From: a virus
Virus record (IMG/VR): IMGVR_UViG_3300044820_000144
Span: 1-51,591 of that record
Reading direction: 5' to 3' (one strand)
DNA length: 51,591 nucleotides
Shown here: in pieces, positions 3,589 to 49,020 of the stretch
How the letters are laid out: every line of letters starts with the position of its first letter
Position numbering within the stretch: the stretch's first letter is position 1
Position numbers and translations under genes: made by a program
The notes under the pieces: model-generated
Told to the model about the DNA's origin: nothing
Seen by the model: the letters and a program-made list of their open reading frames with translations, nothing else
Databases searched by the model: none

Positions 3589-4503
3589 TCACGACGCCAG
3601 GGGCGGGTTCTGCCGGTCGGGCGTCTGCTCCTTCGCGGTGCGCCGACGCGGGGCCCCCGGTGCCGCCTTCTTGGCGGCCGGGCGACGCCGGGGGGCGGGC
3701 GGCTCCTCGACGGCGGGCGTGGCCGCCTCGTGCTTGGCGACGAACTCCAGCAGCGCGGCCCCCAGGTCGCCGACGGTGGCGGTCTTGTCGGCCAGGGAGA
3801 CCGGCGTCGCGGACTCGACCAGCTTCGCCAGGGCCGCCGCGCGCCGGTCACGGTAGTTGGCCTCGTCGTAGGGGGTGCACAGGATGTCTGCGGCGTGCTC
3901 GGCCATCGCCAGGTACTGCTCGTTCAGGGTCCCGCCGACCTGCGGGCGGGCCCGGACCAGCTCCGGGCGGGCCAGCTGCCGCATCGTCAGCACCCCCTCC
4001 AGGGTGAAGACCTGGAACAGGGCCGGTGCCCCACCGAAGGAGAACTCCCCGATGAACCCCTTCTCCGCGTGCCGCCCGACCAGCGTGGACAGCAGGGCGT
4101 ACCCGTCCTCGAAGCCCTTGCGGGGGGCCAGGTAGTAGCTCTTGCCGGTCGGGAACAGGCCGGACAGCTCCGCCGCCGGGTGCACGGTCAGCGGGATCGT
4201 CTTCTTCTGCTCCTCGGTCGCGGCCAGCTCCTGGACCGCGGTGGTGTCGAGCATGACGACCGCCCCGCCGGCCGCACGGCCCTTGCGGAACGTGTCCCGG
4301 TCCTTGTTGTCGCACTCGGGGCAGTAGTCGACCCGCTTGATGCGGGAGGGCGCGGTGCCCTCGTGGACCGGGTCGCCGTCGTGGGTGCACAGCGAGATCA
4401 GACCCGCGTCCTCGTCCTCGACGGCACCCTGAATGCCCATGGGCACCGTGATCGGACCGAGCTGGACGGTCGCCACCCGGAACGTGCGCGCTGCTGCTGC
4501 CAT
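3589..4503 (-). CDS. ku: Ku-like DNA end-binding protein
   Basis: TVQLGPITVPM..., SRIKRVDYCPEC, FRKG, YYLAP, GYALL; basic Pro/Ala/Lys/Arg tail; AGGAGG RBS before ATG 4503. Confidence 0.8.
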   Translation of the reverse strand: MAAAARTFRVATVQLGPITVPMGIQGAVEDEDAGLISLCTHDGDPVHEGTAPSRIKRVDYCPECDNKDRDTFRKGRAAGGAVVMLDTTAVQELAATEEQKKTIPLTVHPAAELSGLFPTGKSYYLAPRKGFEDGYALLSTLVGRHAEKGFIGEFSFGGAPALFQVFTLEGVLTMRQLARPELVRARPQVGGTLNEQYLAMAEHAADILCTPYDEANYRDRRAAALAKLVESATPVSLADKTATVGDLGAALLEFVAKHEAATPAVEEPPAPRRRPAAKKAAPGAPRRRTAKEQTPDRQNPPLAS

Positions 4504-12700: not shown

Positions 12701-12750
12701 TACAATGCTAGACGTCTAGCACTGTATGTACCACCGCCATACGGGTGACA
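12701..12750 (-). promoter_or_regulatory. internal promoter with palindromic operator
   Basis: -10 TAGCAT inside near-perfect 26-bp palindrome TACAATGCTAGACGTCTAGCACTGTA; upstream TCACCCGT box; 14 bp identical at 16888-16901. Confidence 0.6.
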
Positions 12751-16887: not shown

Positions 16888-16940
16888 TACAATGCTAGAC
16901 GCCCGCCGCTGTAGATGGCAGACGCCGAACGGGTGACACC
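16888..16940 (-). promoter_or_regulatory. internal promoter homologous to 12701-12750
   Basis: Minus strand GTGTCACCCGT...TACAG...CGTCTAGCATTGTA. Confidence 0.55.
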
Positions 16941-19892: not shown

Positions 19893-20213
19893 TCAGGACT
19901 TGAACCGATCACAGTCACGGGGCGGCACGCGCTCGCCGAGGCTCCGTGCGAACGCCTCCCCGTCGTTCGTCCGCTGGGGGTTCAGCCGGGGCCGCTTCAC
20001 CCCGCGCGTCTCGCCTGCCATCCGCCGTGCTTCGGCCAAGAGCGCCGTAGCGATCCCGCGACGCCGGTACTCCGGCTCAACGTGGATGTCCAAGATCAAG
20101 CCGCTGCGGCGTGACCAGATCAGTACGGCAACCGCGCGGCCATCCTGTTCGGCCGTCAACCGGTGCGGCTCACCCATGCGGCTCGAATCAAGGTCATACG
20201 AATAGGTGAGCAT
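19893..20213 (-). CDS. GNAT family acetyltransferase
   Basis: ILDIHVEPEYRRRGIATALL acetyl-CoA motif; GGAG RBS. Confidence 0.85.
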   Translation of the reverse strand: MLTYSYDLDSSRMGEPHRLTAEQDGRAVAVLIWSRRSGLILDIHVEPEYRRRGIATALLAEARRMAGETRGVKRPRLNPQRTNDGEAFARSLGERVPPRDCDRFKS

Positions 20214-20235
20214 CAGCTCCCCTTTCAGATCGGAC

Positions 20236-20831
20236 GTGCAGAGCGACACACCTACCGGGCGGCAGGTGCATCACTCAGTGCGTTCGATCAAGTCCGTGGT
20301 TTCGGGCGCTACCCCGTAACGGGCACTCACGGATTACCCCGGTACGCCATATCGCTATGCGTCAGGCGTACATCTCTCATTTACCGGATCTCTCCGGCGG
20401 CACGCTTGCCTCCTCTGCGATCACCGACCTTTTCAGGGTCAGAAATCGTCAGCCGCTCAACCCCTCGCGGGTAGCGGGCTAGGTTAGACGCCTCATATCG
20501 CGTCCGTCTGCACGGCCAATCGAGGTTCAGCGATTGCCGGTTTCCCTAGCGTTGTCCCATGCGAACTAGAACCGTGTGGACGCGCGGCATGTCTCCCCTA
20601 GGGCAGTCGGCCGGTTGTCCGCGCGCATGGTGTACGTTTCGTGCGCTCGTCCTCTTTTATTGTTGGTCGGCACAATGCCGCCTATGTGCGTGCGCGTCCC
20701 TAGCTCGCAATGCCTGCACCCTGTGACGCCGTGCGGGTGTGGTGCATCGGCCAATGGCGGGAGCGTGCTGGTGATCGCTTCCTGCGGTCCCCACTACCGG
20801 GCCGGTCCGTCCCCCCGGACGGACACGGCCC
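20236..20831 (-). ncRNA. candidate large structured non-coding RNA
   Basis: ~600 nt with no credible ORF; about 10 hairpins; three GNRA loops and G-U pairs on the minus strand; long-range helix 20236-20242/20507-20513. Confidence 0.55.
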
Positions 20832-20844
20832 GATCGAAGGGAGA

Positions 20845-21699
20845 TCAGGCGGCGGACGTGGCGATGATCAGCGGGCCGAAGCTCTGCGGCGCGCGCGGGC
20901 GGACGATCTGACCGGACACGCGCTCCGGGGAGTCACCCACGACCGCGCCCGACTGCACGGCCGTACCGGCGAACCGCGAGAGGGAGTCGATGAGCGCGCG
21001 GGCCGCGTCGGCCTGCGCCTGCGTGGCCGTGGCGCCGGACAGCTTGCCGATCGGGCCCGTGATCGCCCGGAGCATGGCGTCCACGTCCACCGTGTCGCTG
21101 ACGGGCGCGTCCGGGACGTCGTCGCCACCCTCGCCACCCTCGCCGGTCGCCACGGCGGAGGACTTTTCAGAGGCAGAAACGATCACGGCCGACTCACGCT
21201 CGATCCGGGCGACGTCGTCCGCCATGAGTCCACGGATCGCCTCGATCTGGGAGGCGGCACCCGCGATCGTCGCGCGGGCGATCTTCGTGCAGCCGTTGTT
21301 GTAGAGCCGTTCCACGATTGTCTGGATCTTGCTCGGCGTGTCGATGTACTCCGCCATGAATGCCCGGTCCTCGGCGTCCGCCGTACCGGCGTACACGGGC
21401 AGCACGAGCACGGCGCCCGTGAGCGCGTGGTAGCCGAGGTACGCGTTAGAGGTACGGGTCTTGCGCACCCCCAGCTTCAGAACCTCGGCGCGCACGGCGG
21501 AGATCGTGACCCCGGAGTGCACGGTGCGGTGAAGGCCAGTGGCGGACGCAACGAATGCGTCCCGCGCGGCAACGTCGGCAACGTCGCACGCCTTGACCAG
21601 AGCGGCGGCACTCGCGGCCGTGAACGTGGTGCTCTCGGGAGTGGCGTTGTGCGCCCGGCCGGTCACGTCGCGGATCGGGGCGGTGAGCATGGCGTTCAT
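20845..21699 (-). CDS. hypothetical Ala-rich helical protein (second gene of leftward arm)
   Basis: GGAGG RBS, ATG 21699, 284 aa. Confidence 0.7.
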   Translation of the reverse strand: MNAMLTAPIRDVTGRAHNATPESTTFTAASAAALVKACDVADVAARDAFVASATGLHRTVHSGVTISAVRAEVLKLGVRKTRTSNAYLGYHALTGAVLVLPVYAGTADAEDRAFMAEYIDTPSKIQTIVERLYNNGCTKIARATIAGAASQIEAIRGLMADDVARIERESAVIVSASEKSSAVATGEGGEGGDDVPDAPVSDTVDVDAMLRAITGPIGKLSGATATQAQADAARALIDSLSRFAGTAVQSGAVVGDSPERVSGQIVRPRAPQSFGPLIIATSAA

Positions 21700-22019: not shown

Positions 22020-22560
22020 AAAGAGTAGCAAGCGCAGTGCACACTGCGCTGTAGACCATATGGCTGACAGTGAACGGGTGAAATGTGGGCCGTTTCAGGG
22101 TCTGAAAGCCCCTACATAAGCGGACATATCATGCCTGAAAATGGGTTGATCCATTCCACCACCCATTCGGCGGTCGACAGGACAAGCCCAATCATGAGGG
22201 GTGTTGTGGTCGATTCTCGGGCATGTGGGTGTTAATCAGACACCACGAAGATCGCAAGAGTAGTCACCCGAACGGACTCACCCGTTCAGCCGATTGACAC
22301 CCAACCAGGCCATCCCCCCCGTTACTAGAACAAATGGACATTCAGGGTGTTTCTATCCCCGGCTGCATCCATTTCACGATGGCAACGATTCGATTTAGTG
22401 TCGTACTACCGCGGCGTTGTCACTGTCATCCGTCGTGGCGCGCGTCCGGCATTTCCGCTGGTCAGGGGCTTGGGGGATGCGCGCGACCATCGGCGAATGC
22501 CGATAGATCGATTCCGCATAACCGCAGGTCAGAGCTTGATCGTCAGAGAATGCCCGTGAA
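22020..22560. promoter_or_regulatory. divergent control region
   Basis: AT-richer, no credible ORF; leftward -10 TACTCT at ~22022-22027 beside palindrome AGCGCAGTG-CA-CACTGCGCT (22031-22050); several TCACCCG boxes; motif copy 22093-22107. Confidence 0.65.
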
Positions 22561-29814: not shown

Positions 29815-29840
29815 CCTGAGCGGGCTACCCCATGAACCAC

Positions 29841-29925
29841 GCAGCCCCTCGGCGCGGCCGGCGCCGAGGGGCTGCGTGCTGTCCACGGTCGAGCACGAAG
29901 GCCCCGTCCGGAGACGGGGCCTTCG
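29841..29925. terminator. tandem strong hairpins
   Basis: GCAGCCCCTCGGCGC..GCGCCGAGGGGCTGC and CGAAGGCCCCGTC..GACGGGGCCTTCG. Confidence 0.55.
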
Positions 29926-30379
29926 GCGTTGCGGCTGGCCTCCCCCGCAGGCGGCTGCCGGATCAGTATGACCTACCCGCGCCGTGGTGGATGTGCAGCG
30001 GATGGTGCTGGAGGTCACTTCTGTGCGTCCTCGACACGATCGCGCATTGTCGAGTTCGTTGGATCTGTTCGTTGCACGATCACATTAATTGTCGTTGAGA
30101 CTCATGCGTTCGAACTAGACCGACCATCGGCTCAATGGCCGATCCGGCCCCGGAACGACACCCCACGGGGTGCTCGCGACCACGCGTGAGGGTCGATTCC
30201 TGCCGTGCGCGAACTGTTGGTGCGGGCCGGTGCGGATCCGTTCGGGAGAACGGCGTGACGACTGATCAGGTGAATGGTCCATACGGGATCAACGCGACCT
30301 CCCGTCGGCCACTCGTCTGGTTAGCTCCAGTCGTGCAGAAATCCGCAGAGAAGGTGCTGACGTGCCGTTCCGAAAGGCT

Positions 30380-48675: not shown

Positions 48676-49020
48676 TTGAAAGCTACGCTGCGGGACGTGC
48701 CGAACGATCCCGGCGCACCCCCCACTCCGGCTGGAGGCCTCGTCGTGCTCACCCTCATTGACGTTCGTCCGGGGGGACTGACCGACGCGATCTGTGAGAC
48801 GGTGCGCCGCTGGTCGGACGCGGCCGAGGCGGGGCAGCTGCGCATCACACCGAATCCGCTCAACCCCTGCCACTACCTGATTCTGACCGGCGGCACCATC
48901 GTCGCCACGCTGCGGATCGTGGATCCGGACAACGAGGTGAAGCCCATCGATACGTCGCCCGACCCGGCCGACGAGAAGGCGGACGAGATGACGACGGAGG
49001 GTCGGTCCGATGCTGAGTGA
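48676..49020 (+). CDS. hypothetical protein
   Basis: 114 aa, overlaps dcd start. Confidence 0.45.
   Translation: MKATLRDVPNDPGAPPTPAGGLVVLTLIDVRPGGLTDAICETVRRWSDAAEAGQLRITPNPLNPCHYLILTGGTIVATLRIVDPDNEVKPIDTSPDPADEKADEMTTEGRSDAE

Follow-up and report, generated by a model that had tools for sequence, protein, structure and literature searches.

A large structured RNA conserved in two phages at the head of a leftward gene arm

Here, we describe a large phage RNA that is, judging from comparative evidence, real, conserved, and uncatalogued. By comparing two sequences, one from a peat phage and one from a soil-type contig, we show that a sense-strand RNA structure of 560 to 650 nt is under selection. 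This conclusion is drawn from compensatory base pairs, an invariant loop, and the retention in both phages of a long-range helix (P1), a three-way junction, GNRA hairpins, and a long 3′ hairpin. A preliminary description, made from the letters of the peat phage DNA, had proposed a large phage noncoding or cis-acting RNA at this place, possibly of a new class. Our results support that proposal, with revised boundaries, two revised structural details, and a family of two sequences. By analogy with known phage RNAs, we give somewhat less than an even chance (about 0.45) to the reading that we prefer, in which this would be a stable early RNA, released at its flanking hairpins and acting in trans.

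A gap without genes in the leftward arm

The window, that is, the whole stretch of DNA analyzed (51,591 nt), comprises the opening 51.6 kb of a phage contig that measures 136,218 nt and comes from a peat metagenome (IMG/VR record IMGVR_UViG_3300044820_000144; ~69% G+C). The genome is ~95% complete, carries a serine recombinase gene, and has no reverse transcriptase. An Lsr2 gene points to an actinobacterial host, and the relatives recognized by their capsid genes are uncultured phages only. Codon-usage gene calling delimits a leftward arm that runs from ~21.9 kb to 1.2 kb. At the arm end lie genes for an ATP-dependent DNA ligase and a Ku-like protein (1168 to 2097 and 3589 to 4476), which are also found in the relatives G001 to G003. 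Two tandem tRNA-like genes with irregular anticodon arms occupy 2192 to 2346. The tRNAs nearest to the RNA, as detected by ARAGORN, are ~16 to 18 kb away.

Near the head of the arm, gene 2 (20845 to 21699, minus strand) encodes 284 aa of no known family, with zero Pfam or PHROG matches. A search of 1.84 billion proteins returned two relatives, one in contig L047, where the RNA lies downstream, and one in contig L048, where the RNA is absent downstream. The structure prediction for this protein (pLDDT 36) was unusable, and an atlas search was uninformative. The next gene, for a GNAT acetyltransferase, occupies 19893 to 20210 on the same strand. Between the gene-2 stop (20845) and the GNAT ATG (20210), the codon model calls nothing. 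An automated call of a 118-aa GNAT protein opens at a GTG within the 3′ hairpin of the RNA; a ribosome-binding site precedes the ATG at 20210. We thus agree with the earlier observation that 20236 to 20831 hold no credible ORF: the codon model is empty there, and the one frame shared with L047 spans 11 codons of the invariant stretch, has zero synonymous changes, and ends at different stops in the two phages. This pattern indicates constraint on the nucleotides.

Structure and selection

Folding statistics favor the sense strand. Relative to shuffles, the minus (sense) strand of the gap folds with a z score of −4.39 and the plus strand with −3.01; for the L047 RNA, the scores are −4.8 (sense) and −1.8 (antisense). 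The two-strand comparison suggested in the preliminary description therefore gives folding better than shuffles, with a sense bias, in both phages. The excess sits in 20228 to 20521 (z = −5.68) and in the hairpin after gene 2, and 20522 to 20790 alone are no better than shuffles (z = −0.59). Among five other large gaps tested, one alone reached z = −4: the gap at window 29835 to 29930, where two back-to-back perfect hairpins (18 and 15 bp), probably terminators, appear to account for this score on both strands.

We found a single homologue, on the 9.1-kb Logan contig L047 of soil type. There, a gene-2 relative (33 to 36% identical) is followed by a 750-nt gap that holds a 650-nt version of the RNA (L047:1276-1925). 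Local alignment of the window RNA to this gap scores 175, compared with 27 ± 3 for shuffles. The modules follow in the same order in both phages: gene-2-end hairpin, P1, variable domain, three-way junction, GCGA hairpin, variable arm, core, and 3′ hairpin. The L047 arm opens with gene 2 as its first ORF and lacks the Arg-rich gene 1; the gene downstream of the RNA is different, with an unrelated 87-aa ORF in place of the GNAT gene.

A 109-nt 3′ core is strongly conserved, with 86% identity between the window and L047. None of its 26 nested pairs is broken in L047, and its eight changed paired positions form four compensatory pairs, split evenly between hairpin B and helix C. Permutation of the changed core positions gives P of about 1e-4, a figure in which linker columns containing an alignment shift inflate the count of differences; the analytic figure for the paired columns alone is 2e-5. 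When the partners are slid by one to three columns, core pairing falls to 20 to 37%. A pair-count shuffle control gave 35 of 500; with two rows, that control cannot reach significance, hence the position-permutation test. Covariation among homologues, on which the preliminary description had made its case depend, is therefore present as compensatory changes in the single homologue. The 5′ domain is 45% identical over alignment columns.

The whole candidate RNA is ~563 nt long (20228 to 20790; all of its parts are on the minus strand), with presumed ends placed from the flanking hairpins. Upstream, a GC-rich hairpin directly after the gene-2 stop (20788 to 20842, minus strand) is kept in both L047 and L048 and is the probable 5′ boundary of the RNA. 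Since it also stands behind the L048 gene-2 relative, which has no RNA, we assign this hairpin to gene 2, which places the RNA at about 20790 to 20228. Another hairpin, at window 48763 to 48784, is similar to its top. Downstream, the long 3′ hairpin (20228 to 20289) has a 16-bp core and no U tract, and ends just before the next ribosome-binding site. Compared with L047, it shows one double change and three single changes of the G-U type, and none of 15 pairs is broken.

Between these hairpins, P1 joins 20762 to 20768 (its 5′ strand) to 20400 to 20406 and encloses the variable domains. It has 7 bp in both phages, with an identical 4-bp core, and its pair probability is 0.97 in the window ensemble and ~0 in the L047 ensemble. 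The structure of the variable 5′ domain (20560 to 20758) is predicted only: a hairpin and an 18-bp interrupted helix (20709-20692/20585-20560) that would close a multi-way junction. The three-way junction (20478 to 20556) is closed by a CUAG/CUAG helix and bears two hairpins of changed sequence; L047:1476-1552 has the same architecture, and the alignment of the two beats 100 of 100 shuffles. Next come the GCGA-tetraloop hairpin (20453 to 20477), whose stem and loop are kept in L047:1553-1575, and a variable arm (20415 to 20452) with one operator-like palindromic site (20431 to 20445). The corresponding arm of L047 measures 164 nt and has two such sites.

The core itself consists of two hairpins and a helix with a large loop. 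Hairpin A (20383 to 20398) has 6 bp and a GNRA loop, GAGA in the window and GUGA in L047. Hairpin B (20342 to 20371) contains an internal loop that appears to resemble the 11-nt GNRA tetraloop receptor. The third element (20293 to 20341) comprises helix C (20333-20328/20298-20293) and a 29-nt invariant loop (20299 to 20327). Two CCCG and two CGGG blocks within it permit an inner hairpin and a pseudoknot (20341 to 20338 with 20306 to 20303), whose pairs are invariant in both phages and are evidence neither way. Hairpins A and B were already present in a prediction from the window alone that preceded discovery of the homologue; helix C was absent from it (probability 0.04).

The structural details of the preliminary description are partly borne out. 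The GCGA hairpin (20462 to 20471) and the GAGA hairpin (20383 to 20398) are real and remain GNRA in L047, and the stem at 20249 to 20268 belongs to the 16-bp helix of the 3′ hairpin, which includes four G-U pairs. The recurrence noted for GCGATATG is exact, with two copies in the 136-kb genome, both in the RNA region; the 3′ copy alone is conserved in L047. CTAG does occur five times in the gap, where 1.9 occurrences are expected from base composition. Two proposals had to be amended. The supposed GAAA tetraloop is a 7-nt loop in our fold, and its weak hairpin coincides with one copy of the arm-wide palindromic site. The strands of a proposed long-range helix (20514-20507/20242-20235) can pair, but imposing this helix on the whole RNA costs 4.2 kcal/mol, and four of its eight positions mispair in L047. 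Its 5′ strand is conserved in L047, with an offset 6-bp partner only, and may make some contact.

Known RNA families and the search for further members

Neither copy of the RNA matches Rfam, at the gathering score or at E values up to 10, and ARAGORN is also empty in the gap. The earlier statement that no known family could be matched thus holds for both copies. Rfam models and ARAGORN returned zero matches for RNase P, tmRNA, SRP, 6S/Ms1, small ribozymes, and riboswitches. Group I and group II introns, retrons, and DGRs were rejected: the Rfam scans are negative, the locus is intergenic, and a reverse transcriptase is absent from the 95%-complete genome. Visual likenesses to glmS, pistol, twister, HDV, c-di-AMP, and group II domains V and VI were also rejected, as in every case the remainder of the respective core is absent.

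A third family member was absent from blastn searches of INPHARED and PLSDB, from IMG/VR searched with four patterns, and from JGI metagenomes and GTDB searched with two patterns each; in IMG/VR, one pattern gave 110 matches, of which the 80 listed are all chance matches by model score. An RNA model (R1) found no copy in 14 capsid-level relatives (two near-complete, most of them fragments) or in one Nocardia genome. Scans led by proteins (gene 2, GNAT, and a neighboring small gene) found the RNA nowhere beyond L047. These family searches need exact or near-exact words and miss diverged members, and the family may be wider.

By sequence or model, the RNA belongs to none of the known families that we tried; its size and placement resemble those of known kinds. 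Cluster A mycobacteriophages (L5, D29, and StarStuff) produce a stable, very abundant, processed, and toxic RNA of ~500 nt (Dedrick et al. 2017, PMC5712189). This Pleft RNA is encoded at the head of the leftward early arm, near the genome end and among stoperators (PMC5712189). The RNA described here is similarly a folded RNA of the ~500-nt class, at the head of a leftward early arm, perhaps near a genome end, and with operator-type sites inside it, in what appears to be an actinobacterial phage. The L5 Pleft RNA starts at a promoter, whereas the window RNA follows gene 2, and the window sites are near-palindromic, whereas Cluster A stoperators are asymmetric. Homology to the L5 Pleft RNA is absent by alignment (score 28 versus 26 ± 3) and by model score (6 bits, E = 0.23). 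The L5 Pleft RNA (L221:1641-2173, equivalent to L5 51140-51672) folds with z = −3.66 and has a T-loop-like hairpin at its end. It is conserved in >200 Cluster A phage records and looks ready for a covariation study.

GOLLD and ROOL are large ornate RNAs characterized by multimeric cages made of RNA alone. GOLLD RNAs combine a conserved 3′ part with a variable 5′ part (PMC12286853), and ROOL RNAs average 581 nt (PMC5737381). Like these, the present RNA is phage-encoded, 560 to 650 nt long (within the ROOL range), and multi-junction, with GNRA loops and a possible pseudoknot. The likeness to GOLLD is one of layout alone, an 86% identical core against a 45% identical 5′ domain. Compared with ROOL (~580 nt, six multistem junctions, three pseudoknots), the size fits, one junction is conserved, and one pseudoknot is possible but invariant. 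Unlike GOLLD and ROOL, the RNA has no Rfam match, and unlike many of them it has no tRNA neighbors; it is known from two actinophages only.

A further resemblance is to the conAn system of pLS20-type plasmids (compare EAR and HK022 put), in which, likewise in a Gram-positive host, a long operon opens with a protein gene and then an RNA of several hundred nucleotides (PMC8191782). The differences are that the RNA lies in a phage early arm and not in a conjugation operon with many intrinsic terminators, that gene 2 also occurs without the RNA, and that the terminator count is at chance level.

The head of the arm and the possible functions of the RNA

A near-palindromic site occurs ~17 times between the genes of the leftward arm and is possibly a stoperator-like repressor site. 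Copies are spread from 893 to 22107 (e.g., 5682, 8919, 13085, 14193, 17850, 18499, 20431, and 22093), ahead of almost every gene. The center of the palindrome measures 5 to 6 nt in the window, 4 nt in L047, where the sites also precede almost every gene, and 7 nt in L048. A bipartite promoter-like motif is common to the gaps at 16897 to 16935 and 12710 to 12747; the first half of this motif is also present in the head region and in G001. Upstream of the arm, a candidate physical genome end lies at 22320 to 22365, where contigs of the presumed source run break at 22363/22365. In L047, the contig begins 43 nt from a shared G run, an offset identical to that in the window, and the contigs come from two independent runs. 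These breaks hint, though weakly, that the genome physically ends at 22364; the related positions are L047:1-44 and about 68235 in G001.

Other phages have other material at the head of this arm. In L048, a different CTAG-rich noncoding stretch (L048:330-830), with a weak folding excess (z = −1.6), precedes gene 2 and terminates in a small cloverleaf that resembles tRNA and has a T-loop. Also upstream of the gene-2 relative, L048:1041-1105 give a hammerhead-like match of type II (37.7 bits) whose core is variant. In G001 (IMG/VR 3300043389_000001), the head of the same arm (64830 to 68100) combines four genes whose codon use is unusual with an intrinsic terminator and a gap of 1.1 kb that contains long palindromes and short direct repeats (z scores down to −10 locally), a repeat-rich gap that recalls the T5 injection-stop region. 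Alignment of the noncoding stretches of L048 and G001 to the RNA is no better than shuffles. Judged from these sequences, the arm-head slot looks exchangeable between phages.

We favor a stable RNA that would act in trans. Its transcription, shared with gene 2, would begin in the promoter region that heads the leftward early arm, and the two long flanking hairpins would set it free, whether through cleavage, by stalling an exonuclease, or by terminating transcription. The RNA could then fold compactly through GNRA-receptor and pseudoknot contacts. Early in infection, its invariant 29-nt loop would most likely bind a host protein or RNP, as a decoy or in a takeover. Such an action would be like that of the Cluster A Pleft RNA and of GOLLD and ROOL, without membership in those families. 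Gene-specific control is unlikely, because the gene downstream of the RNA differs between the two phages. Several points speak against action in trans: the RNA follows a protein gene, whereas the L5 RNA starts at its promoter; no tRNA is nearby, unlike for many GOLLD and ROOL RNAs; and the L047 ensemble does not favor P1.

A cis-acting processive antiterminator would fit the same layout nearly as well, and, by analogy with plasmid and phage systems, we regard it as possible but doubtful. The nascent RNA would stay on RNA polymerase and keep it transcribing along the whole 20-kb arm, the gene-2 protein possibly serving as a processivity factor (compare conAn1 plus conAn2, EAR, and put). The arrangement matches the conAn layout, a protein gene and then a 260- to 600-nt RNA at the head of a long operon (PMC8191782). 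In L047 the arm opens with gene 2 and then the RNA, and GC-rich hairpins in several arm gaps would suit such a role. However, gene 2 has a relative in L048 without the RNA, capsid-level relatives with a syntenic arm also do without it, and the shared promoter-like motif recurs inside the arm, at 16935 and 12747. Moreover, U-tailed terminators on the sense strand number one or two, a count that does not exceed that of shuffles, and the Arg-rich gene 1 is absent from L047.

It is unlikely that the RNA is a new ribozyme, with the invariant loop and pseudoknot as a catalytic core that would cleave or process the early transcript. The 29 invariant nucleotides in a core otherwise about 80% identical would agree with catalysis, as would the hammerhead-like element that precedes gene 2 in L048, and GNRA loops with a receptor-like motif are typical of large ribozymes. 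Against this stand the zero matches to ribozyme models; by eye, the core also lacks those of the hammerhead, twister, pistol, HDV, glmS, group I, and group II domain V. The wider proposal that the 109-nt core is a new catalytic or RNA-polymerase-binding fold (either a ribozyme or the first phage protein-plus-large-RNA antitermination system) remains tentative, a minority prospect in our estimate.

It is quite improbable that the region is a chain of independent elements, namely the gene-2-end hairpin, an operator arm, a 110-nt small RNA, and a terminator. The lack of folding excess and low identity of the 5′ 270 nt would suit this, as would the operator-like site just upstream of the core, but the module order, three-way junction, GCGA hairpin, and spanning P1 are kept in both phages. 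We give very little credence to a single-stranded DNA signal near a genome end (an injection stop, origin, or packaging site): the RNA is about 1.6 to 2.1 kb from the possible end and G001 has its repeat- and palindrome-rich gap at the same place, but it is the transcribed strand that folds, and its structure has GNRA loops and exchanges of G-U for Watson-Crick pairs. Equally remote is a translated mini-ORF in the invariant stretch (19 codons in the window and 13 in L047), its start hidden in helix C; although the same frame opens 5 nt past a G-rich run in both phages, with GTG in the window and ATG in L047, its 11 shared codons lack synonymous changes beside a neighboring protein with just one-third identity, the exchange of start codons makes up one side of a compensatory pair, and the stops differ.

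Bacteria and phages have few large, intricately folded RNAs, and for GOLLD, ROOL, and the Cluster A Pleft RNA the function has yet to be settled. The RNA described here adds a further unrelated class, from actinophages; its conserved core is small, has sharp limits, and is accessible to in vitro synthesis and probing. From where it lies, the head of the actinophage early arm would seem to be a recurring slot for different large RNAs. Should it prove to be an antiterminator or a ribozyme, it would join a very short list of such RNAs. A new core fold of that kind, if it is one, would act on the first DNA entering the actinobacterial cell.
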